From the NCBI GenBank assembly GCA_965218095.1, contig OZ244587.1, positions 5,408,001-5,472,000 of the forward strand: DNA of 64,000 nt. The letters are read 5' to 3'. The notes under the pieces are model-generated. The model searched no databases and had not been told where the DNA came from. It saw nothing but the letters and a program-made list of their open reading frames with translations. A program made the position numbers and the translations under genes. The stretch is from Candidatus Poribacteria bacterium. Its GTDB lineage: Bacteria; Poribacteria; WGA-4E; PCPOR2b. Below are positions 37,706 to 48,132 of this stretch, piece after piece; the first letter of the stretch is position 1; the number at the start of each line of letters is the position of its first letter.

Positions 37706-38335
37706 CTATGACCAGGTGTTGCGAAACCAGACTTGTGGCAGCAGATTGAGCGTTGTTTCTTCACCCCCGCAATTGTATGCCGTAATGCGAATCAGTAAAT
37801 CTTCCGGCGAAGCCTTTGCGTACTCCACGAACACATCGAAGTATCGGTCTTCATCAAAGATGCCAATGTCTATAAGCTCAAACTCTAGTGGTTCTTTGCC
37901 GCGCTGGCGGTTTTCCTCTACAAGCTAGGCATACGGAGATTCCGACTGTGGATATTTGTAGAGCATTTTCATGTACGAATGGGTCGGCGTGCTATCCAGA
38001 TAGTAGTAATACTCTTTCACCTCCTCACCGTGATTGCCTTCGTTGTTTGTAAGGCCAAAAAGACGTCCTTTCAAAATGGCATCTCGCCCATTCCACAGCG
38101 CCAGCGAGAAGCAGAGGAATTGCAGTTCATCGCTGATTCCGGCGATTCCCTCTTCGCCCCAACGATAGGCTTTGCTGCGTGCCATATCGTGAGAAACATA
38201 TTCCCACGCGGCGCCGTGCGGACTGTAATCCTCCCGCACGGTACCCCATTGACGCTCAGTCAGATATGGCCCCCATTTCTTCCATGGGGCTTTTTGGTCT
38301 CTCACTTCTTGTAATCGTACCTTTTCTGCGTTCAT
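37706..38335 (-). pseudogene. GH63/MGH1-like glucosidase N-terminal fragment
   Basis: '[18 protein letters not shown]', '[12 protein letters not shown]'; homology continues past TAG at 37925 to a second TAG at 37706. Confidence 0.8.
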
Positions 38336-38348
38336 AAGAAATCTTGGC

Positions 38349-39305
38349 TTAGTTTCGTAGTTCTTGCAGCAGACATTCCCATCTCTGCCGCTCGCGGTCG
38401 GGATGGACAATAGGCTTTAGTCGCTCACACCACACTTTGAGCGTGGTGTAAAATTCCAGGTCTGTTTCAACTCGCTGCAGGAGATTCGCCAACGCTTTTG
38501 TGTCTCCGACCGGAAAGTATCCCGGATAATCTTCTCCTAGCAAGCCAATCGAGCCCGATATCCGCGATGAGATGACGGGCACTGAACAAGCAATAGCCTC
38601 GCAAACGACATTAGCCCCACCTTCCATTTGCGAAGTGAGCGCGAGAAGCCGACTGCGAGCCAGGATGCGGAGCGCCTTCCAGCGTGGGAGTTCCCCTAAC
38701 CACTGGTAGCGGGGATTGGAGAATACTTCGGCATGCGCATGTATTTCCATATCTTTGGTGAGGGCGCCCCCAACATGCACCACCTGAACTCGTGAAGATG
38801 GAGGCAGCAATCGGGCTGCTATGGCGGTTCGGAATGGGTCCTTCACGGGACGCAGATGGCCCAGCACTGACACCTCAAAAACTCCCTTTTTGGGAGAAAA
38901 CGCTCCCGGCGGCGGTTTCACAGATTGATAGATTACCCACGCCTTGCCACGCAGATGCTCCGGCAGTTCCGCAATGCCTGCGGGTTGCAGCAGAATGAAA
39001 CGATCCGCCATCTCCAGAGATTCTTGAGCTGACGTAGCTGTGTGGATATCGCCGTAAAGATCCGTTCCGGTCAGCGCGAGGATAAGGGACAAGTCCGGAT
39101 ATTCACCTCGAAAGCGTGCGATGGAATTGTGGCTGCGGCGTGCGTGGAGGGCAATCATCAGATTGCATCGCTGCCCTTGATACTCCTGCGCGATAGTGAC
39201 ATGGTGACCGAGTTCTCGTAAGATGTGGCTCCACCGAAGGGCGGTCACACGATTCCCCTTGCGGGAGTATGTTGGAGCTGGGGTTATCAGACAGATTTTC
39301 ATCAT
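38349..39305 (-). CDS. senB: Selenosugar synthase SenB (glycosyltransferase)
   Basis: 'GNRVTALRW', 'ALHARRS', 'LTGTDLY', 'GHLRPVKDP', 'MEGGANVV'; adjacent to selD. Confidence 0.9.
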
Positions 39306-39319
39306 TGCTCCTTGAAACT

Positions 39320-40381
39320 TTATACAAAAACAAGGTGGTTCGAGTCAACGAGGGGCATCACATGCCCGATAATCCGCGCTTTTTCTACACCATCATTGTG
39401 TAGGGCCATCAATAGTGCCTGGCTTTGGGCTTCAGGCACAGAAACCAGGAGCCCACCACTGGTCTGGGGGTCAACAAATATTTCCGTATGCCACGAAGGT
39501 AGTGAATTTTCAAAACGCGCAAGGTCTGAAATTAACGCACGATTGGCAGCATTGACGCCTGTACTCATCCCTTTTTGGTACATTTCCAAAGCCTCGCGCA
39601 TGATCGGCACTTCGTCGGTGTAGATTTGCAAAGTGATGCCAGACCCCTTTGCCATCTCCAAGGCATGGCCAGCCAGTCCAAATCCGGTGATGTCCGTCGC
39701 CGCATGGATGTCAAAGTCAGCCATGATCTCTGCCGCTTTTTTGTTGAGCGTTGTGATAGTTTGTATACATTCCTCTAGTGCCTGATCTAATACCCAATTT
39801 TTCAGATTAGCATTAAAAATTACGCCACTGCCGATAGGCTTGGTCAAGATCAGAACATCCCCCGGTTTGGCACCGACGTTTCGCCAATATTTTTGCGGAT
39901 GCACAATTCCGGTGACTGACAGCCCGAACTTCGGTTCTTCATCATCGGTTGTATGACCGCCCGCTAGGACCGCGCCGGCTTCAGTGATTTTACTCAATGC
40001 CCCCTCAACAATTGCATGCAGGATTTCTGGCTCCAGTTTATCTGACGGAAAACCCACCAAATTTAGACAGGTTACGGGGCTGCCACCCATTGCATAGATG
40101 TCGCTGATTGAATTGGCTGCACCGATCTGACCAAACAGGTATGGGTCATCCACCGGTGGGGTGATAAAGTCGGCAGTAGTCACCAAAGCCATTTCGTCGT
40201 TCAGGCGGTAGATAGCTGCATCATCGCTGGTTTCAAATCCGACAAGCAGGTTTGGGTCATCTTTCTTCGGCAGCTTTGCCAAGAGTTCTCCCAGTCCAAC
40301 TGGACTGACCTTGGCCGCTCACCCACAGGTCTTCGCGAGGCTTGTGAGGGTATGTTTTCGTGACAGTTTATTTAAGTTCAT
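39320..40381 (-). CDS. selD: Selenophosphate synthetase (SenC/SelD), Sec-containing
   Basis: In-frame TGA at 40321-40319 gives TCG-U-AAKV; 'SDDAA', 'DFITPPVDDPY.FG', 'DITGFGL', 'DPQTSGGLL'. Confidence 0.92.
40278..40315 (-). promoter_or_regulatory. Candidate bacterial SECIS for selD
   Basis: GCCAAG..CAGUCC-AGUU-GGACUG..CUUGGC; apical loop starts at nt 18 after UGA. Confidence 0.6.
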
Positions 40382-40449
40382 CGTATTGCTCCAAAGCTTT
40401 TTTAAGAGGTGACGGTGATAGGTGACAAAGACACACCGGGGTTCGAGGC

Positions 40450-40659
40450 TCAATCCCCTATCGCCGCTTTTGCTTGCGCTACCCTGTTGGTTTCGGCTTC
40501 CTCTCTGGTCGAACCGGTAGATCGAGCGATGACGGCGCCGGGGCTCACATTGTCTACGGTACAAACATACGCATTCCCGAGTTGGTAAGACTTGATCCGG
40601 ATCGTCCATTTGCCAACGGATTCGGTTCGCGTTTGATGGTTTTTAGGGGCTTGAGCCAT
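40450..40659 (-). CDS. Small hypothetical protein
   Basis: AGGAGG RBS; 'SYQLG..YVCTVDNVSPGAVIARS.G.TREEAE'. Confidence 0.6.
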   Translation of the reverse strand: MAQAPKNHQTRTESVGKWTIRIKSYQLGNAYVCTVDNVSPGAVIARSTGSTREEAETNRVAQAKAAIGD

Positions 40660-40909
40660 GTCGTACCTCCTTCAGGGGATTCTTTTTGTCTAAAAACGAA
40701 AGGAGTTGAAATTCTTGGTTTTCCTCAGTTGTCAACGTAGCAGTATCGTAACGAATTCCGTTTTTGCTCAATTCATCAAGAATCGTCTGTAGCACAATGT
40801 AGACGCCTTCACGGACAAAAGTAGCATCGCAGTGATACTTTCTCATTAATCGAAAGATTTCTTTCCAGGCAGCTTGTTTGTCGCTTAGAATGCGCATCGC
40901 ATGGGACAT
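40643..40909 (-). CDS. Small hypothetical protein
   Basis: ORF co-oriented with the cluster, GAGGG upstream. Confidence 0.45.
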   Translation of the reverse strand: MSHAMRILSDKQAAWKEIFRLMRKYHCDATFVREGVYIVLQTILDELSKNGIRYDTATLTTEENQEFQLLSFLDKKNPLKEVRHGSSP

Positions 40910-40988
40910 GTAATTCTATCCCTCTTTTTAATGCTCCCGATGGATAGACATATCCAAACCGAGCATAATCGGATCCGCCAACGACGGA

Positions 40989-42284
40989 TCAACCCAACGC
41001 ACAAGTCCGAAATCCCGCCCACACGTCCCGGCGATCTGGCGTATAAAAGTTCCGCCATGTGTTACGAAGCATACGAGCGCGGGTCGTCCAGCATCCACCT
41101 CGCAGGACTTTACGGGTTTTAAACCAGGGATCGGAATACTCTTTGTAGGGGTCAATCTCGAAGCCGGGGTAAGGGAGAAACGTGCTGCTTGTCCACTCCC
41201 ACAGGTTACCAATCATCTGTCGGCAGCCGAAGGGGCTGTCACTTTCAGGCAAGGCTCCCACATCGATACAACCCATGGTAGTCCAGTCGAGGTTAGCTCG
41301 ATCCGGATTCGGCGGTTCATCACCCCATGGAAAGTGACGCTTCCGCGAGGAGAGTCCCTGACCGTCCGAATTTGGCTCGACAGCGGCAGCAACCTCCCAC
41401 TCGGCTTCTGTTGGCAATCGGCGTCTAGCCCAACGACAGTAAGCTTCTGCCTCATGCCAGTTGACATGGATGACAGGCAGATCCGGTTCAAGCGCCCTCC
41501 ATTTGTCAAAATGCCGGCGCAGCCAGTCGCCGTTAACGTCACGTCGCCAGTAGACCGGGTGTTCCGCACTCTCCGTTTTCCGCCATTCCCATCCCTCCTG
41601 ACTCCAGAGCTCTTTTCGGCGATAGCCCGCATTGTCCACAAACCCTGCAAACTCGGATTGAGTTACGGGAGCGCGGGCAATGGCAAACGGTTCAATCTCG
41701 ATCGGATGCGCCCACTTTTCGTTGTCAAACACGAACGGTTCGTCCGATGTGGCCCCCAAAATGAACGCACCGCCAGGAATCTCTACGTCACCCAACAGCG
41801 CCCCCTCTTCGGCCTGTGAGTTGCCGCCACTGGAAAATCGCGGAGGTGGGTATGCCAGCGTCTGGCGCGTATAGGTAAACGCCTCATTGTGCATGTCTTC
41901 GTGATAGACCGTATAGCGCACAAAATAGACCTGTGCTTCGCTGGGCTCGCCCCGCTGAAGCTGCTCGATAACCCGATTGCACACTTCACGCATGTATGCC
42001 AACGTCCCTTCGCGGGAGGGCAGCGGCAAATCCCATCGCGTTGTATGGGGGATGGCAATCGAGTCCCAAAGTGCGTCGGCGTCATCACGAATCGGTTTCT
42101 GCTTGTAGACCTCCCGCAGGACCCATTTCTCCTGAAACCACGCCACATGCCCAATCTCCCAAATCAACGGGTTGATGATCGGCAGATAGGGACTCATCAG
42201 TTGTTCGTCGCTGAGATCTGCAACCAGATCGAAGGTTCGCTGACGGGCATCATGCACCCACTCAGCAAGTTCTGCGCTATCCAT
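40989..42284 (-). CDS. senA: Selenoneine synthase SenA (EgtB-like: DinB + FGE domains)
   Basis: 'INPLIWEIGHVAWFQE', metal motif 'HEDMHNE', 'RLPTEAEWE', 'GNLWEW', 'AGFRTC'; clustered with senB and selD. Confidence 0.88.
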   Translation of the reverse strand: MDSAELAEWVHDARQRTFDLVADLSDEQLMSPYLPIINPLIWEIGHVAWFQEKWVLREVYKQKPIRDDADALWDSIAIPHTTRWDLPLPSREGTLAYMREVCNRVIEQLQRGEPSEAQVYFVRYTVYHEDMHNEAFTYTRQTLAYPPPRFSSGGNSQAEEGALLGDVEIPGGAFILGATSDEPFVFDNEKWAHPIEIEPFAIARAPVTQSEFAGFVDNAGYRRKELWSQEGWEWRKTESAEHPVYWRRDVNGDWLRRHFDKWRALEPDLPVIHVNWHEAEAYCRWARRRLPTEAEWEVAAAVEPNSDGQGLSSRKRHFPWGDEPPNPDRANLDWTTMGCIDVGALPESDSPFGCRQMIGNLWEWTSSTFLPYPGFEIDPYKEYSDPWFKTRKVLRGGCWTTRARMLRNTWRNFYTPDRRDVWAGFRTCALG

Positions 42285-42433
42285 GATTCCCTCCTCATAC
42301 GTGAAACGTGAAGCGTGATTATAGCGCGGATTTGCAGAATTCGTGGATTGGCAAAAATCCGTTTATTCTGTCAATCCGTGTTCTTGTTCTCCTATTTCTT
42401 CTCTTCCCCTATCAACCGTCCCCCTGTCCCAGT

Positions 42434-43543
42434 TTAGCCCCACACCGCTCCGGCAGTTTCAACGATAACTTTCAGCTTACGCTTCTGATCTCCTACGGTG
42501 ATATGATTGCCGACGATTGAAGTCGAGAAACCACACTGCGGACTCAACGCCAACCGCTCCAGAGACACGAATTGACTTGCCTCCTTGATGCGCGCGATAA
42601 GTTCTTCCGGCGTTGCTCGGCGTGGTGTCTTCGTGGTGACCAACCCTAACACGGCGATCTTGTCATCAGGGATCTCCTTCAGCGGCTCAAACGAACCGGA
42701 GCGTTTATCGTCGTACTCAAGCAACAACCGCTGCGCATGGATGCCCTGGAAGATCGGTTTGGCAATCAGGTCATATCCGCCCTCAGTCAGCCACCGGCTG
42801 CCCTGGTTGCCGCGTCAAAGGTGAAAGCCAAACGTGACTTCTGGAAAATCGCGAATCACGGTGTTGTCCATCTCGATTCCTCGGCGCAGCCACTGATCGA
42901 GCGTCCAGCCCTGTGCCTCGTAAAAAGCCCTGGTTTTTGGATCGAGCAGCAACGGATAATGCGGTGCATCAAGTTGAATGTAAGTGGCGCCCAGGCGGGC
43001 CAGCTCGGCGACCTCCTCTCGCAAGATGTCAACCACATCCGCCAGAAAACTGTCGAGCGTGGGATAAACGGGGAGGGAGTATTCTGGTGACCAGAAGTTT
43101 GTCCACAGACTTGGGCTTGGCAGCGTGATCTTTGGTATGCGAGTCGTCCGGGCCCGCAGGTAGGTAAACTCCTCTGCTGAGAGGTGGCGCTTGCGGGTCA
43201 GTTTGCTCATAACGCCCATATTTTTAGGGCGTTCCAAGCGTCGATCTCCCACGCCCTCGTTGCCGCACCAGTCACCCCAGAGAAAGGTGTCGATGTCGTA
43301 TTCTCCGAAACCATCGACAGCTTCCGTCATCTGGCTCTGGAAGGATAACCGGCGCATTTCCCCGTCGGTGACGACTTCCAGGCCTGCTTCTTCCTGGAGC
43401 GCGATGGCTTTGTCAACCGCTTGGTCCTCGATTGCTTTGAACGCTGCTTGCGTCATACGGACCGTGGCTACATCCTCTCTCGCCTTGAGCAACTCGGGTG
43501 GACGGAGCAAACTTCCAACGACATCAGCATGTGTGTGAATCAT
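42434..43543 (-). CDS. Cobalamin-independent methionine synthase II-family (MetE catalytic-domain-like) protein with in-frame TGA, predicted Sec243
   Basis: 'ADVVGSLLRP', 'TDGEMRR', 'YIQLDAP', 'GFHL-TGA-RGN', 'LEYDD.RSG.FEPL', 'LSPQCGF'; both ORF-track pieces share one frame. Confidence 0.85.
42784..42805 (-). promoter_or_regulatory. Candidate bacterial SECIS for the MetE-like gene
   Basis: CAG-GG-CAGCC-GGU-GGCUG-A-CUG; loop starts at nt 20 after UGA. Confidence 0.5.
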
Positions 43544-43566
43544 GATTTTTCCCCGCAAACGGTGAA

Positions 43567-43870
43567 CTATTCTTTTTCTGCTATTAATACCACATGGTCT
43601 CCAAAGCACCTCAAGAAGGGGAACACCTTAAATAATATCCAATTGATTTTTTCTAAACGTGCCCGATCGCCTGCTAAAGCACTTAGTACGGCGACGAAGC
43701 GAAATTTCTTGATTGTCAATTTCGGGAAGAACTTCTTAATGATCGAAATATCGTTTTTGTTTAATGGTCGTTCATCCGGTGTGTCGTGGTAACTGATTTG
43801 GCGCGAGAGGTTTTTAACGTCTTTTGGAATGAAATGGGTCACGATTTTGCTGTTTCTGATTCGATTGCGT
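43567..43870 (-). pseudogene. Possible C-terminal fragment of a SAM-dependent methyltransferase
   Basis: AT-rich 'HDTPDERPL..DI..IKKFF...WILFKVFPFLR'; no SAM-binding motif present. Confidence 0.35.
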
Positions 43871-44033
43871 ACTTCCGTTTGCATGGAATCTTTAAAAATC
43901 GCGCATCCACAATGACGCCTTTGCATCTTGTATCTTGCATGAACAACGGATTCAAGATACAAGATGCAGGTATAGAAAGTGTAGTCTATACCATCTTGCG
44001 GTATATTTTGGGGACGCTCGCAGCTCTGATCGA

Positions 44034-45572
44034 TCACTCCGTTTTCAATCGAAGGCCTTTTGACACCAGTCCTCGCTCGGCGATCTCGAAAAGCCCCTGT
44101 ACCAATAGGGCAAGCCCCGCGGCTGGCACTGCGCCTTGCAGGATTAACCCAATATTGTCCAGGCGGATACCCGTGAGAATTGGCTGCCCATAGCCGCCCG
44201 CCCCGATCAGTGCCCCAAGCGTGGCAGTCCCGACGTTGATAACCGCCGATGTCTTGATGCCAGCCAGAATAGACCGTGCTGCCATCGGCAACTCCACCAA
44301 ACAGAGGCGCGCCCGCGGTGGCAGCCCTAGTGCTTCCGCAGATTCGCGTATCTGCACCGGGATGTCATGGAGCCCTGCGTAGGTGTTTCGCACGATCGGC
44401 AGCAGGCTGTAGAGGAACAGCGCGACAACCGCAGGCGGGCCGCCGATGCCCAAGAGTGGAATCATGAAAACGAGTAAGGCTAAAGAGGGGATCGTCTGGA
44501 TGATCCCCACTATTCCTAGGATGAATTGCCCAATCTGCGGGATTTTCGTTGCTAAAATGCCAAGCGGAATGGAGAGGACGATCGCCCCAAGTAGCGAAAT
44601 TGCTACTAAGAGAAGGTGTTCCTTTGTGTGCTTCACGAAACGGCTGACCATGTTTCCCTCCTGCTGCATCCTGGTCGTTAAGTTGAGGCTTGCCTCCCAG
44701 CGGTAGTCGAAGAGATCGTTTATCATTTCGATAAATTCAGATACCACAAGACTTTCCGGTTCCCGATCCAGCTTCACGCGTGCGTTCATCCGCACCATTT
44801 CTGCCTCGGAGATGCGCCCCTCTAGCTTCAACAGAGATAACACCACCTCCGGCGCCCGCTTCTGTAGGTCATCCCGGTAGAGCAGCAATGCTTTATAGGT
44901 AGGAAAGTGGTGCAGATCATCCTCCAGTCCTCGTAGGTTATAGTACTGGATTTCTGCATCAGTCGAGTACAGATCGATAGCGTGGATGGTACCGTCCTCC
45001 AGACCGCGGTAGGCGAGGTCGTGATCCATACCTCTCACATCGCGGTGTGGCAGGCTGTATCGGTCGCGCAGGCTTGGCCAGCCGTCTCCGCGGTCCATGA
45101 ACTCGTTTGAAAAACCGAGCTTCAAATCTGGGTGATTGCGCAGATCTGAGATTGTCCGAACCCCCAGTTTTTCGGCAATCTCTTCCTTCATTCCAATGAC
45201 GTAGGTGTTATTGAAACCCAAAGGAAGACTCACACGGATATCCCGATTAGCCAACGCCTTTAGGATTTCTTCCTCACTGCGTATTCCACTACCAGCCAAG
45301 ATTTCTCCACTAATTGTACCGGTGTATTCTGGATAGACATCAATTTCGCCTCCCAGCAAGGCATTCCAGAGCACCCGAGTCCCGCCGAGTTCTCGACGGT
45401 GGACGACATCAGCGCCGGCGCTTCGTGCTAAATAAGTAATCAATTCTCCCAAGATGACTGACTCGGTGAACTTTTTTGAACCGACCTTCACCTCCGGGAC
45501 ATCGCCGTTCACCGGCGGAATTAGCGCCCAGCATATCGCTGTGAGAAACAGAGTTAGCCAAAATTGCTTCAC
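44034..45572 (-). CDS. OpuAC/betaine-family ABC substrate-binding protein fused to permease
   Basis: Signal peptide, 'VGSKKFTE', 'YPEYTGT', 'GFNNTY'; permease 'QTIPSLALL', 'LGALIGAGGYG'. Confidence 0.9.
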   Translation of the reverse strand: MKQFWLTLFLTAICWALIPPVNGDVPEVKVGSKKFTESVILGELITYLARSAGADVVHRRELGGTRVLWNALLGGEIDVYPEYTGTISGEILAGSGIRSEEEILKALANRDIRVSLPLGFNNTYVIGMKEEIAEKLGVRTISDLRNHPDLKLGFSNEFMDRGDGWPSLRDRYSLPHRDVRGMDHDLAYRGLEDGTIHAIDLYSTDAEIQYYNLRGLEDDLHHFPTYKALLLYRDDLQKRAPEVVLSLLKLEGRISEAEMVRMNARVKLDREPESLVVSEFIEMINDLFDYRWEASLNLTTRMQQEGNMVSRFVKHTKEHLLLVAISLLGAIVLSIPLGILATKIPQIGQFILGIVGIIQTIPSLALLVFMIPLLGIGGPPAVVALFLYSLLPIVRNTYAGLHDIPVQIRESAEALGLPPRARLCLVELPMAARSILAGIKTSAVINVGTATLGALIGAGGYGQPILTGIRLDNIGLILQGAVPAAGLALLVQGLFEIAERGLVSKGLRLKTE

Positions 45573-46348
45573 GAGGAGCCTCCTTCTAACGCTTCCAGCG
45601 GACTGCGCTGGGCATTGATAAAACTGGTTACGAAGGGATCAGCAGGCGAGCGCACCAACGCTTCCAGCGTACCTTCCTGCACGATGTATCCATCACGCAG
45701 CAGCAAGATCTCGTCGCCGACGAAACCCGCCTCACCGATGTCATGCGTCACCATGACCACCGTCTTGCCGAGCGTCTGGAAGATTCCTCGGAGATCGGTC
45801 TGTAGTCCGGCGCGGATTATCGGATCCAACGCCCCCAACGGTTCATCCATCAGCAGCACATCCGGATCTAGCATAAGCGCACGCATCAAGCTTACACGCT
45901 GCTGCTGCCCACCAGAAAGTTGCGCCGGGTAACGCCCTAAGCCATCGTTCGGGAAGTGGGTCAGATCAGTAAGCTCGGTCAAACGCCCCTCAATCCGATT
46001 TTCGTCCCATTCGAGATAACGTGCCATGAGCGCAACGTTGTCTCGTGCTGTAAGGTGTGGAAAAAGCCCGCCATCCTGAATCACGTAGCCCATCTGATGC
46101 CGGAGATCAAGAACATTGTCAGGCGTCAGCTCCGTTCCTTCAAAGCGGACAGTGCCTGTATCTGGTTGGATAAGACCAATCATCAACCGCAGCAGGGTTG
46201 ACTTACCACAGCCGCTCGGGCCAATCAGCACCGTTGTTTTGCCAGACACAACGGCCAGATTCATTCGCTGAACCGCCTGTGTCTGGCCAAAGGTTTTCGA
46301 GACGCCGTTTAATTCGAGTATGTAGTTATGTTCCATGGCAACCCTCAA
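45569..46348 (-). CDS. ABC transporter ATP-binding protein (OpuBA/ProV-like)
   Basis: GPSGCGKS, LSGGQQQR, DEP. Confidence 0.93.
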   Translation of the reverse strand: MRVAMEHNYILELNGVSKTFGQTQAVQRMNLAVVSGKTTVLIGPSGCGKSTLLRLMIGLIQPDTGTVRFEGTELTPDNVLDLRHQMGYVIQDGGLFPHLTARDNVALMARYLEWDENRIEGRLTELTDLTHFPNDGLGRYPAQLSGGQQQRVSLMRALMLDPDVLLMDEPLGALDPIIRAGLQTDLRGIFQTLGKTVVMVTHDIGEAGFVGDEILLLRDGYIVQEGTLEALVRSPADPFVTSFINAQRSPLEALEGGSS

Positions 46349-47349
46349 ATTGGGGTAAGCAGATTTAAAGAAAAGTAACCCCGATCATCCTGCCAGCTTT
46401 GAGCCAGGTGAAATCGAGTCTGGGAACACATCTCGATGATCTGTGCTTTGTTGTATTTGTATGAATTCTCCGTATGGATGGTCTCACCCTGTCTAAACTG
46501 GAATGTCTTATTGAGTTGACCGATATGTACCTCCTGCTCTTTTTCGCTGCGCAAGTGCATTTCTATGCGGTTTTTCTCTGCACTATAGAAAGCGAAATGA
46601 GAGAAATTCTTCACATTAAGATCACCGCCAAGCTCATGATTGATACGCCGGAGTAGATTCATATTAAACGCTGCAGTGACCTGCTGCGAATCGTCGTAAG
46701 CCGCTTCGAGGATCGGCACATCCTTCTGCATATCCGTACCGAGCAAGAAGTAATCATTACGATTCATCCCCCGGCGGATCTTACACAAAAAATCTGAGGC
46801 TTCATCGAGTTCAAAATTACCAATATTCGAACCGAGGAAAACAACCATCTTTTGCTCAAAATCTTCTTCAGCGATTCTCTGGATTCCCGCATTGTATTCG
46901 GCGACATGTGCAGTGATTCTCAGTTCAGGAAATGTCTTGAGAAGATGTTTGGCGCTTTGCACAAGCATTGATTCGGAAATATCAATTGAAAGATAGTGAA
47001 GGGCACCCTGTCGCGTAATGAGGGCTTCGATGAGCAAACCGGTCTTGCGGGAGTTCCCGCTTCCCAACTCGATGACCGACATGTTCCCTTCGGAATACCT
47101 TGCAATTTGCGGTGCGAAGCGTTGGAGGATTGAGCGCTCGGTGCGGGTGACGTAATATTCAGGCAGATTGCAAATGTCTTCAAATAACTTTGAACCGGTT
47201 TCATCGTAAAAATATCTGGGTGACAACCGTTTGGGCTGTGTGGAAAGTCCCTCAAGCACATCTTCAGCAAAATGAGACGTTGCATTGGCAGAGGAATTTA
47301 CCTTGACTGTCAGACGTACATTTAAGGATAAATCGCCGGATTGGGACAC
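46345..47349 (-). CDS. egtD: L-histidine N-alpha-methyltransferase
   Basis: 'YFYDETGS.LFEDIC.LPEYY.TRTE', 'ELGSG', 'FLGSNIGN', 'IHTENSYK'. Confidence 0.92.
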   Translation of the reverse strand: MSQSGDLSLNVRLTVKVNSSANATSHFAEDVLEGLSTQPKRLSPRYFYDETGSKLFEDICNLPEYYVTRTERSILQRFAPQIARYSEGNMSVIELGSGNSRKTGLLIEALITRQGALHYLSIDISESMLVQSAKHLLKTFPELRITAHVAEYNAGIQRIAEEDFEQKMVVFLGSNIGNFELDEASDFLCKIRRGMNRNDYFLLGTDMQKDVPILEAAYDDSQQVTAAFNMNLLRRINHELGGDLNVKNFSHFAFYSAEKNRIEMHLRSEKEQEVHIGQLNKTFQFRQGETIHTENSYKYNKAQIIEMCSQTRFHLAQSWQDDRGYFSLNLLTPI

Positions 47350-47967
47350 TGCAGAAACCTTTCTAACTGTTGTACAAAATCCAATGATTCACTTATTCCC
47401 ACTTAAGAGCTTATCCGGAAAGTCAGTCTTCACTTTTTTCGTTCCTGTTGGTCCCCGGATCGGGGGCTCGAACTCTCGCGCATTCTTATCTATCGGGGCC
47501 ACGCCAGGTATTTTCCGGATGGCCTCTAAGCCTGAATTTCCGTTAATTCACATACTTTTTCACTCAGTCGTAATCTACCCATGAATAACTTCCGTGGGGA
47601 CTAGTACGGAGATTTCAGCTTAATCTTGGGATGGTTCAGAAATCGGTTATAACACGTTCAAACCGCAACAAAATGCGAGATCTCATCCTTGAGGTCGAGA
47701 GTTAATGAGAAGCAGCAAATAGAGTGAAAGGTGGTAACTTGGGTTTATATAATAGCATGGATTTGGAAAAATACAACCAAAATTTCAAATTTCATCCTGC
47801 GAACGTCATCAATTCAATCGTTGCCGATGTCATCCGATTATCGTATACAGGGTGAGTGGAGTGGTGATTTCGGGTCACTTACGACTCCACCACTCACCAA
47901 TTGAGAACATACTTCAACAATGACTATCATGTTGACTAAGACCTATGGAAATATCCCGGGATGCGTA

Positions 47968-48132
47968 CTAGGTTCTGTTGACATTTCGCTGTCGCGAATT
48001 CGGCAAACGCTGTAATCATCGTGCGACCCGCCAAAAACCAAGACGGTTGTCCGAAATCGCCTCAAGGTGCATCAGGTCGAAGACTCTTGGAACGGAGATT
48101 GGTTCAATCCGTCAAATGTCAACAGAACCTAG
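47968..48132. mobile_element. 165-bp MITE with the IS5 ends
   Basis: CTAGGTTCTGTTGACATTT...AAATGTCAACAGAACCTAG, matching the IS5 TIRs; no transposase inside. Confidence 0.85.

Follow-up and report, generated by a model that had tools for sequence, protein, structure and literature searches.

The stretch of DNA analysed here (the window, 64,000 nucleotides in total) belongs to a Candidatus Poribacteria genome, G000 in the following, and carries on its minus strand a MetE-like gene with an in-frame TGA in the company of genes for selenoneine and selenophosphate synthesis (Table 1). The gene order is MetE-like, senA, orf88, orf69, selD, senB, with 149 nt separating the first two, and a hercynine synthase gene and a betaine-type transporter are found on the other side. 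A 156-aa open reading frame at 43567-44037, for which neither a family nor a homolog in related loci could be found, is probably non-coding and was rejected. An Rfam scan of positions 38000-48000 yielded only two sub-threshold chance matches, both to eukaryotic families, and a scan for promoters and terminators returned fewer sites than shuffled sequences and nothing usable.

Table 1. Genes and features at the locus (positions within the window)
Feature	Position	Strand	Remarks
egtD (histidine N-alpha-methyltransferase, hercynine synthase)	46345..47349	-	TIGR03438, 374.7 bits (cut-off 290.9)
betaine-type ABC transporter	44034..46348	-	OpuAC substrate-binding domain fused to permease, 44034-45572; ATPase, 45569-46348
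MetE-like (PF01717, YxjG/1YPX-like) selenoprotein gene, putative	42434..43543	-	369 codons and TAA stop; Sec at codon 243
in-frame TGA (U243)	42815..42817	-	aligned to E. coli MetE zinc ligand Cys643
SECIS-like hairpin	42786..42802	-	core stem CAGCC/GGCUG, 7 pairs when extended; apical loop GGU, 42795-42793
senA (selenoneine synthase)	40989..42284	-	NF041186, 526.4 bits (cut-off 420); DinB_2 and FGE-sulfatase
orf69 (conserved 69-aa ORF)	40450..40659	-	no Pfam family; 67-87% identity in 15/16 g4 loci
selD/senC (selenophosphate synthetase)	39320..40381	-	selenoprotein; TGA 40321-40319 = U21, motif TCGUAAK
senB (selenosugar synthase)	38349..39305	-	TIGR04348, 387 bits (cut-off 300)

In the list of open reading frames the MetE-like gene appears as two pieces of the same frame, 42815..43609 and 42434..42727, and the minus strand around the TGA reads TTT GGC TTT CAC CTT TGA CGC GGC AAC CAG GGC AGC CGG TGG CTG ACT GAG GGC GGA TAT GAC, which translates as GFHL-TGA-RGNQGSRWLTEGGYD. 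When TGA is read as selenocysteine (Sec, U) from the ATG at 43543, a start that agrees with the N-termini of full-length homologs, a protein of 369 residues with U243 results, which contains the motif SPQCGF (C337) and ends at a TAA. Contigs assembled from three sponge metatranscriptome libraries, all of one study, and from a DNA run of another bridge the TGA without any difference at it, as a check at read level, suggested when the gene was first noticed, had called for. It should be noted that contigs from RNA libraries are no proof of transcription and are silent on translation.

The protein matches PF01717 (Meth_synt_2) with 57.1 bits (cut-off 21) over residues 8-342, and hhalign relates it to E. 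coli MetE (b3829) with a probability of 97.5%, covering only MetE residues 430-731. In this alignment H241, U243, E276 and C337 fall on H641, C643, E665 and C726, and S11, E62 and D192 on S433, E484 and D599; according to the accessible part of the source, the former four are the zinc ligands and the latter three the homocysteine-binding residues of the E. coli enzyme (PMC7857596). S11, E62 and D192 are furthermore invariant in the alignment of 17 full-length homologs. The MetE barrel is recovered in the structural comparison as well (Foldseek TM 0.72-0.74 to T. maritima MetE, 1XPG/1T7L), whereas the overall identity to MetE is only about 17-27%, the length is 369 instead of 753 residues, the N-terminal folate-binding half is absent and Sec stands at the position of Cys643; the score for TIGR01371, the model of canonical two-domain MetE, is far too low (36.2 bits, cut-off 929.95). 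A full-length match is found in PDB 1YPX of Listeria monocytogenes (E 1.9e-46; Foldseek TM 0.70/0.80), with HICRGN, LEYD and SPQCGF aligned. Like this protein and the other YxjG/YxjH-type proteins (PRK06233, PRK06520), the MetE-like protein consists of about 370 aa in a single MetE-type barrel with H-x-C-RGN, LEYD and SPQCGF, but it has Sec for Cys in H-x-C, remains below both NCBIfam cut-offs (228.6 vs 313 bits for PRK06520, 215.1 vs 576 for PRK06233), and it forms a tight clade of its own, 73-80% identical across phyla. Weaker matches are given by PRK04326, PRK09121 and PRK00957 (85.5, 49.8 and 31.8 bits, respectively), which we take to be models covering MesA-MesD-like enzymes. The protein is a member of the single-domain YxjG/YxjH/1YPX-like branch of the MetE catalytic-domain superfamily, and its Sec occupies the place of the Cys in the H-x-C motif, which binds zinc. 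The sequence-only reading had arrived at the same picture from the letters alone: two same-frame pieces split by a single TGA at 42817-42815, a MetE-like enzyme of 369 aa with Sec243 at the HxC metal ligand, a later Cys in SPQCGF (here aligned to zinc ligand C726), and a position directly upstream of senA, a gene now identified by NF041186. None of these statements has to be altered.

Among 41 Poribacteria genomes searched (G000 counted), an ortholog is present in 19, G000 included, and the copies of the 18 relatives share 79-84% identity with that of G000. All 19 orthologs carry TGA at the same codon, dS relative to G000 exceeds 1, and the residues RGNQGSRW encoded directly after the TGA are invariant at the protein level. 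Purifying selection is as strong behind the TGA as before it, with a Nei-Gojobori dN/dS median of 0.097 downstream and 0.093 upstream (171 pairs), and in the Chloroflexota clade dN/dS downstream of the TGA is 0.13. One of the relatives, G023, contains an additional in-frame TGA at codon 130 (CGA -> TGA), and this copy may be broken. Sec forms are not confined to Poribacteria: they make up 3 of 5 orthologs in Acidobacteriota and 7 of 19 in Chloroflexota (401 genomes sampled in each case) and occur in Binatia too, and 37 metagenome contigs comprise 6 with TGA, 28 with Cys codons and 3 without the motif. The best 120 database proteins are 73-80% identical, and the 17 of them that were aligned, all full-length homologs, have Cys at position 243 without exception; at the DNA level, TGC or TGT occupies the Sec position in 29 distinct sequences. 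Mapping the Sec label onto a FastTree tree of 187 rows takes 8 changes, at least 3 of which are forced by well-supported branches. The comparison of sequences shows that the frame continues through the TGA under purifying selection and that, among close homologs, TGA alternates with Cys codons in several independent lineages.

The machinery required for Sec decoding is encoded in G000. A tRNA-Sec with anticodon TCA (76.6 bits) adjoins selB (353.7 bits), selA scores 605.7 bits, neither selA nor selB has internal stops, and the sole SelD of the genome is itself a Sec-containing protein. Across the 46 ortholog-bearing genomes tested, selA was detected in 45, the lone miss being G006, an assembly of 730 contigs and 90% completeness. 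Whether this co-occurrence points to a selenium-linked function was considered, and the argument was rejected as uninformative, because selA is also present in 308 of 401 sampled Chloroflexota (a tally including the unpublished genomes G264, G083, G190, G218 and G317) and in 40 of 41 Poribacteria relatives. The sequence-only reading had named what would speak against a selenoprotein, namely close relatives with TGC or TGT only, missing Sec machinery or relaxed selection downstream of the TGA; the relatives carry TGA, selA, selB, tRNA-Sec and a Sec-containing SelD are all at hand, and selection is not relaxed. Independent homologs with TGA aligned to Cys, which it had proposed to look for, were found in several lineages, and with the conserved TGA, the Cys homologs and the purifying selection on both sides its selenoprotein claim is upheld.

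The core CAGCC-GGU-GGCUG lies at +15..+27 after the TGA with the GGU loop at +20..+22, and a hairpin of suitable shape and distance can be found in all Sec forms. The hairpin with a GGU loop starting at nt 20, as initially described, is present, but it is not statistically distinctive on its own: single-sequence folding of the G000 hairpin gives an MFE of -20.4 kcal/mol with z = 0.00, a stability equalled or exceeded by 98 of 200 shuffles. Among 26 Sec-form sequences no pair with compensatory changes was counted, and the paired fraction (85.2%) hardly differs from the shuffled mean (84.9%) or from a register slide of -3 (84.1%). The sequence of the stem is dictated by a conserved peptide, (S/G)RWL (S-R-W-L in G000), and the stem is present in Cys forms too. 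What supports the hairpin is the comparison with relatives, not folding energy, and no structural proof is claimed. Synonymous variation in the gene is lowest in the first 10-14 codons after the TGA; in a scan of 17 sequences and 326 windows of 10 codons, the windows starting at codons 242 and 245 rank first and second, with a synonymous codon diversity of 0.11-0.12, the mean of the gene being 0.34. Of 35 distinct Sec-form sequences, 28 use NGG as the loop-forming Arg codon, compared with 1 of 29 Cys-form sequences. That NGG is used by all Sec forms held at first (26/26) and was overturned by the seven Chloroflexota Sec forms, all of which (7/7) have CGT and hence a GUU loop, the same as in their Cys sisters. 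An outer helix of GGCAAUCAG with CUGAUUGCC, seen in many RNAfold outputs, was dropped, as inspection by eye showed its third-position changes to break pairs and not to compensate.

Taken as a whole, we consider it highly probable that the gene encodes a genuine Sec-decoding MetE-like zinc enzyme, with Sec as an inferred metal ligand and homocysteine methylation as its suggested reaction. UGA243 would be decoded as Sec by the SelA/SelB/tRNA-Sec system of the genome, possibly helped by the small hairpin with its G-containing apical loop about 20 nt downstream. Along with H241 and C337, and with E276 in the resting state, Sec243 is inferred to be a ligand of the active-site metal, presumably Zn. 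S11, E62 and D192 may bind a thiol or selenol of the alpha-amino-acid type, with homocysteine the likeliest, and the bound thiol or selenol would be methylated from an unknown donor; as the N-terminal folate-binding half is missing, this donor is unlikely to be bound in the way MetE binds folate. For homocysteine methylation taken by itself, which is inferred from conserved residues only and without activity data, we would put the chances at about even. Within the sen cluster, the enzyme would regenerate methionine and SAM for the SAM-consuming EgtD, and among the functions suggested earlier, the supply of Met/SAM for EgtD best fits the homocysteine-binding residues; the selenium-specific ideas are speculative. 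A search of the genome for MetH revealed only split MetH-like modules, none of them over the cut-off, so that the MetE-like enzyme can be called neither the sole methionine synthase nor redundant. The benefit of Sec over Cys probably lies in a higher reactivity or a better recovery of the metal-site thiolate from oxidation, which again is an inference; the zinc-site Cys of MetE, and likewise the protein YxjG, are targets of S-thiolation under oxidative stress, as stated in the accessible part of the source (PMC4360819). The present data contain no direct evidence of selenium in the protein, of the metal identity or of activity, and both reaction and donor are inferred.

The neighbouring genes invite another interpretation, in which the enzyme does not serve general methionine synthesis and has a selenium-specific job coupled to SelD, SenB and SenA, (de)methylating a selenol (selenohomocysteine, methylselenol, Se-methyl amino acids or selenoneine) and feeding or modifying the selenoneine/selenophosphate pathway. 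The MetE-like gene indeed stands beside selenium genes in two phyla. Besides G000 there is genus g4 of the Poribacteria, where orf69 sits immediately between the MetE-like gene and selD; it comes next after the MetE-like gene in 15 of 16 genomes, and the flanking sequence retrieved includes selD in at least 13 of these. In the Acidobacteriota genome G576 egtD, the MetE-like gene (with TGA) and senA form a tight operon in which the genes are 85 and 56 nt apart. SenA is also present in all 19 ortholog-bearing Poribacteria, and for the MtaA-like Mlps, a related superfamily, a (de)methylation of methyl-selenium compounds has been proposed, as far as the accessible part of the source goes (PMC10418091). 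Against this, senA is megabases away from the MetE-like gene in g4, 12 SenA-bearing Poribacteria (genera g5, g6, g9, g10 and g11) have no MetE-like ortholog, and in a class sample of Acidobacteriota the gene adjoins only 1 of 10 true senA loci (one of the nine loci without it comes from the unpublished genome G1187). For about 9 kb around the Sec forms of G754, G242, G188 and G259 there is no sen or selD gene, and the shorter flanking sequences of L056, L060, L072-74 and L099 have none either. Cys forms that are 73-80% identical abound in other phyla, and the few with sizeable flanks (for example L054/L075 and L094) have unrelated neighbours (sigma factor, NMT1-like, GST), which give no functional lead. 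The conserved residues holding a free alpha-amino acid argue against selenoneine, a betaine, as substrate. The link to the selenoneine genes is real and found in two phyla, but it is not general: what had been described as a gene inside a selenoneine cluster does sit in egtD-transporter-MetE-like-senA-selD(Sec)-senB, yet it is not a regular sen-cluster member and does not consistently accompany senA, senB and senC from one lineage to the next. We regard a selenium-specific job as unlikely, though it cannot be put aside. An equally doubtful extension is that the Sec-ligated site marks a selenium-handling fourth, accessory step of the selenosugar/selenoneine pathway; if true, a methyl group would be moved to or from a selenol, for example in the salvage of Se-methyl amino acids for SelD or to give a Se-methylated product, and this coupling would be the reason why the gene clusters with selD-senB in Poribacteria and egtD-senA in Acidobacteria.

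Far less can be said for a UGA read without Sec, by near-cognate insertion of Trp or Cys or under a reassigned code. The hairpin lacks covariation support and the Sec and Cys sisters in Chloroflexota have the same downstream sequence, both of which would suit such a reading; against it stand the complete Sec machinery of G000, the presence of selA in nearly all ortholog-bearing genomes, and the fact that the position alternates only with Cys codons, a classic Sec/Cys pair. TGA furthermore serves as terminal stop in 3 of the 19 Poribacteria orthologs, selA and selB are free of internal stops, and we give this route hardly any credence. Just as little remains for a true stop, whether in a pseudogene or in a split gene with a 242-residue N-terminal and maybe a separate C-terminal piece, for which one might cite the gene callers that split the locus at the TGA, the second TGA of G023 and the earlier description of the genome as pseudogene-rich, given that the same TGA recurs in Poribacteria at dS >1 and in several other lineages, that selection and the invariant RGNQGSRW extend beyond it, that the downstream ORF offers no possible restart codon until 29 codons past it, and that two of the four metal ligands reside in the C-terminal part.

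Sec usually belongs to a redox active site or serves as ligand to a redox metal, as in formate dehydrogenase (Mo/W-Sec) and [NiFeSe] hydrogenase (Ni-Sec). With such Sec-ligand enzymes, including the predicted metal-binding SaoB, SaoC and MbdU, the MetE-like protein shares Sec in place of a metal-ligating Cys and the coexistence of Cys homologs, whereas its site presumably is a zinc Lewis-acid site for alkyl transfer and not a redox metal. The core folate-independent methionine synthases MesA-MesD are also comparable: they are described, in the accessible part of the source, as single-domain MetE homologs of up to 386 aa in which the zinc and homocysteine residues are conserved and which use methyl donors other than folate, such as corrinoid proteins or MesX, and no Sec form is mentioned there (PMC7857596). 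As to the selenoneine cluster, the window has senA, senB and selD/senC over the NCBIfam cut-offs and egtD in addition; senABC is described, in the portion of the literature available, as a set of three genes, without the MetE-like gene among them. A selenoprotein of the MetE/PF01717 family was not found by full-text searches of the open literature or by looking up terms in PMC13188914, PMC12013277, PMC2398784 and PMC9312934, with supplementary tables and subscription-only papers outside the scope, and no zinc-ligand Sec enzyme of MetE fold was found in the literature searched. Within these limits, the MetE-like family would be a previously unlisted enzyme family among known selenoproteins.

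In the proposed Sec-decoding enzyme, Sec would replace the Cys ligand of a Lewis-acid zinc site in an alkyl transferase of MetE fold, a site type known to be inactivated by oxidation, according to the accessible part of the source (PMC4360819). If confirmed, the Sec and Cys forms would constitute a natural pair with which the effect of selenium on zinc-thiolate alkyl-transfer chemistry and on oxidative robustness could be probed. The finding also draws attention to an accessory gene beside the selenoneine genes of sponge symbionts. It further illustrates how cheaply a selenoprotein may originate: the codons of the conserved (S/G)RWL peptide already supply a correctly spaced, SECIS-shaped hairpin, and in Chloroflexota the Sec and Cys forms are little more than one codon apart, which fits the repeated switching on the tree. 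Since standard gene calling splits or truncates the MetE-like Sec gene, Sec forms of this family are probably under-annotated.

The MetE-like gene of the window represents, with robust support, a selenoprotein family that is new to an already known enzyme superfamily and has selenocysteine (Sec) at a presumed zinc ligand. Its minus-strand frame runs from the ATG at 43543 to the TAA at 42434-42436 and contains a sole internal stop, the TGA at 42817-42815 (codon 243; context GFHL-TGA-RGNQGSRWLTEGGYD). The sequence-only reading had joined two same-frame ORF pieces across this codon and proposed its read-through; both pieces are present in the ORF list of the window, and the related genomes bear the proposal out. 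A six-frame search of 41 of these, including the genome holding the window (G000), yielded an ortholog in 19, distributed over the genera labelled g1, g2, g4 (16/16) and g7, the 18 relatives being 79-84% identical to the G000 copy. All 19 carry the in-frame TGA (one genome, G023, has two) at the identical codon position, flanked by FGFHL and RGNQ. The dS of the orthologs against G000 exceeds 1, and the median Nei-Gojobori dN/dS (171 pairs) is 0.093 before and 0.097 after the TGA; purifying selection on the 126 codons following it thus equals that on the 242 preceding it. Reassignment of TGA can be dismissed, since it serves as the terminal stop in 3 of the 19 orthologs. An assembly error is excluded as well, because the codon is bridged without any difference by contigs of two studies, one contributing three sponge metatranscriptome libraries and the other a DNA run; as evidence of transcription, these metatranscriptome contigs are only weak. 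It should also be noted that the second TGA of the G023 ortholog (L026 / L050) lies at codon 130, which is Arg in the other 16 compared orthologs (13 CGA, 2 CGG, 1 CGC), and as a single C-to-T change suffices for it, this copy may be inactivated or carry an assembly error. In an independent sample (run X3), DNA contigs break near the TGA and hairpin (42770-42830), where the summed depth is 89.5 versus about 17-21, as expected if several co-occurring strains have a highly conserved stretch in common.

The machinery for Sec insertion, which had been left to be looked for in the genome, is complete in the single 6.35-Mb contig of G000: selA (605.7 bits), a tRNA-Sec with anticodon TCA (76.6 bits), selB directly upstream of it (353.7 bits) and SelD. 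Only one SelD in the genome exceeds the cut-off, so Sec synthesis and the selenosugar pathway must both depend on this protein. SelD is a selenoprotein, too (TGA 40321-40319, motif TCGUAAK, context MNLNKLSRKHTLTSLAKTCG-U-AAK), the plain ORF list beginning the gene 33 codons late, at 40282. Among the ortholog-bearing genomes tested, selA was found in 45 of 46, the lone miss being G006 (730 contigs, 90% complete); selA is very common in these phyla (308/401 and 40/41 genomes), and its co-occurrence with the MetE-like gene therefore shows consistency only.

The protein belongs to Pfam Meth_synt_2 (PF01717; 57.1 bits, cut-off 21), while the NCBIfam methionine-synthase models remain below their cut-offs. 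Its nearest solved structure is 1YPX from Listeria, labelled 'putative vitamin-B12 independent methionine synthase family protein', which aligns over the full length (E 1.9e-46) including HICRGN, LEYD and SPQCGF. An AlphaFold model (pLDDT 76.9, pTM 0.81; low-confidence loops 9-14, 61-68, 246-250, 339-345) matches 1YPX and MetE catalytic domains with TM 0.70-0.74. In a profile alignment to E. coli MetE (probability 97.5%), H241, U243, E276 and C337 correspond to the zinc ligands H641, C643, E665 and C726, and S11, E62 and D192 to the homocysteine-binding residues S433, E484 and D599, the roles of which are described in PMC7857596. All seven are invariant in an 18-sequence alignment. The protein thus combines the full set of metal- and amino-acid-binding residues of a MetE-type site, Sec taking one of the ligand positions, but lacks the folate-binding N-terminal half of E. 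coli MetE; the earlier proposal of a MetE-like enzyme with Sec at the HxC metal ligand agrees with the predicted equivalence of U243 and C643. Such a selenoprotein was not found in the searchable literature, which is no claim that it has never been reported: the main text of a 2026 review of prokaryotic selenoproteins (PMC13188914) mentions neither MetE, methionine synthase, homocysteine, PF01717 nor Poribacter, the main texts of the deep-Sep paper, the GOS paper and a 2022 review contain no methionine synthase, homocysteine or MetE, and a full-text search, supplementary tables and subscription-only papers being outside its scope, returned nothing closer. The nearest printed idea assigns the handling of methyl-selenium compounds to MtaA-like methyltransferases, members of the wider UroD superfamily (PMC10418091); these enzymes are not Sec proteins of MetE-like fold.

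Outside Poribacteria, TGA occupies the aligned position in an Acidobacteria MAG (L056) and a Binatia MAG (L060), and 37 metagenome loci comprise 6 with TGA (Sec forms), 28 with TGT or TGC (Cys forms) and 3 in which the motif was not found. Chloroflexota hold 19 orthologs in 401 genomes (7 with TGA) and Acidobacteriota 5 in 401 (3 with TGA); in 201 Binatota genomes searched, the gene was met in the starting genome only. The best 120 protein-database matches are 73-80% identical, and the 17 aligned among them are all full-length with Cys at position 243; as protein databases truncate Sec forms, this share is uninformative on their frequency. Judging by the sequences compared, Sec and Cys have switched repeatedly: a FastTree phylogeny of 187 rows requires 8 changes of the Sec label, at least 3 of them forced by well-supported branches (4 and at least 2, respectively, in an earlier 163-row tree), and in a Chloroflexota clade both forms are interleaved among close relatives, with a downstream dN/dS of 0.13. 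Two Chloroflexota loci of close relatives (L119 and L122, genomes G215 and G179) differ, over 48 nt from the codon, only at TGA/TGC and one synonymous site; one base change appears to be enough for the switch.

The GGU-loop hairpin proposed about 20 nt behind the TGA is present (CAGCC-GGU-GGCUG, loop 20-22 nt after the TGA), and every Sec form shows a small hairpin in this position whose first loop base is G. Across 17 Poribacteria sequences, synonymous codon diversity reaches its gene-wide minimum in the windows that begin with codons 242 and 245 (0.11-0.12, the mean over the gene being 0.34; first and second of 326 windows), with zero synonymous change at Q247, G248, S249 and R250. Of 35 distinct Sec-form sequences, 28 have NGG as the loop-forming Arg codon, versus 1 of 29 Cys-form sequences. 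Folding statistics lend no support: the single-sequence fold of the 76-nt stretch (-20.4 kcal/mol) has z = 0.00, 98 of 200 shuffles being at least as stable, the share of paired positions is the same as in the shuffles on average, shifting the register by -3 costs hardly any pairing, and a search for compensatory changes in the hairpin pairs found none. The conserved peptide (S/G)RWL imposes the stem, which consequently exists in Cys forms as well; in the 7 Sec forms of Chloroflexota the loop is GUU, the same as in their Cys sisters. The SECIS-like hairpin thus seems pre-encoded by the peptide, from which we infer that the latter pre-forms a SECIS-competent structure, making Cys-to-Sec switches cheap, and that the GGU loop would be a later optimisation in most lineages. 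By eye, a comparable hairpin (CAGUCC-AGUU-GGACUG) starts 12 nt after the TGA of the G000 selD.

Genes of the stretch 38349-47349, all on the minus strand, in order of transcription
Feature	Coordinates	Strand	Match
egtD (hercynine synthase)	46345-47349	-	TIGR03438, 374.7 bits (cut-off 290.9)
ABC ATPase	45569-46348	-	Pfam ABC_tran; NCBIfam proV subfamily, 222.5 bits (below 326.6 cut-off)
OpuAC-permease fusion	44034-45572	-	Pfam and NCBIfam matches
MetE-like gene	42434-43543	-	PF01717
senA	40989-42284	-	NF041186, 526.4 bits (cut-off 420)
orf88	40643-40909	-	small ORF, no family
orf69	40450-40659	-	69-aa ORF, no Pfam family
selD/senC	39320-40381	-	TIGR00476
senB	38349-39305	-	TIGR04348, 387 bits (cut-off 300)

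A listed 156-aa ORF between transporter and MetE-like gene (43567-44037, minus strand) has no family and no homolog in the related loci. The roughly 490-nt stretch before the MetE-like gene is probably intergenic, in which case this gene would be the first of its own transcription unit. The transporter (44034-46348, minus strand), an OpuAC-permease fusion with ATPase that resembles the EgtUV type of ergothioneine transporter, adjoins egtD, and homologs of 50-64% identity stand beside EgtB-like and EgtD genes in three Acidobacteriota loci (L155, L161, L167).

A partial genomic association of the MetE-like gene with selenoneine and selenophosphate genes exists in two phyla. The placement inside a selenoneine cluster held for G000, with senA, senB, selD and egtD nearby, but does not extend to a general sen gene: among the 10 true senA loci that a class sample of 251 Acidobacteriota genomes contains, senB is adjacent in 9 (one in the unpublished genome G1187) and the MetE-like gene only in G576, whose 3.2-kb contig reads egtD, MetE-like (TGA) and senA with gaps of 85 and 56 nt. 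In genus g4 the order is amidohydrolase, MetE-like gene, orf69, selD and senB, with orf69 following in 15 of 16 genomes, selD within the fetched flanks of at least 13 and senA megabases away; in G000, senA and orf88 are inserted before orf69. SenA occurs in all 19 Poribacteria with the ortholog and in 12 without it. No sen gene lies within 1.5 kb of the MetE-like gene in the Poribacteria G001 and G006, the Sec forms in G754, G242, G188 and G259 lack any sen or selD neighbour within about 9 kb, and the genes beside those Cys forms for which sizeable flanks were fetched are unrelated. These mixed data make the gene an occasional accessory of selenium clusters rather than a core sen gene, and co-regulation of selenoprotein genes with selD may likewise account for the adjacency. 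The orf69 product is 67-87% identical across loci (L023, L026, L029, L035 and others), and in g4 its gene immediately follows the MetE-like gene and precedes selD; the product may represent a small cluster protein that has gone unrecognised.

Function and metal ligation remain inferences. By inference from its site, the protein would methylate homocysteine, or a near analog (selenohomocysteine, for example), in a Zn-dependent reaction with an unidentified methyl donor. EgtD consumes three SAM per hercynine, and the simplest role in the G000 cluster would be methionine/SAM regeneration for this enzyme. Following general selenium chemistry, a selenolate ligand could increase reactivity or make oxidation more reversible. 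The zinc-site cysteine of MetE, as well as YxjG, are prominent targets of oxidative S-thiolation leading to methionine auxotrophy, according to PMC4360819. G000 further encodes five single-domain MetE-like paralogs (about 27-36% identity; G000:C1, the genome's contig, at 2461453, 5018, 2334416, 5533584 and 6011778), none with an internal stop, and related Poribacteria hold similar sets, an unusually large family for one genome. A full-length MetH is absent from G000; separate genes at G000:C1:6266870-6280094 and 2481868-2482722 match the homocysteine, pterin, B12-binding and activation modules, suggesting a split MetH or other corrinoid methyltransferase systems.
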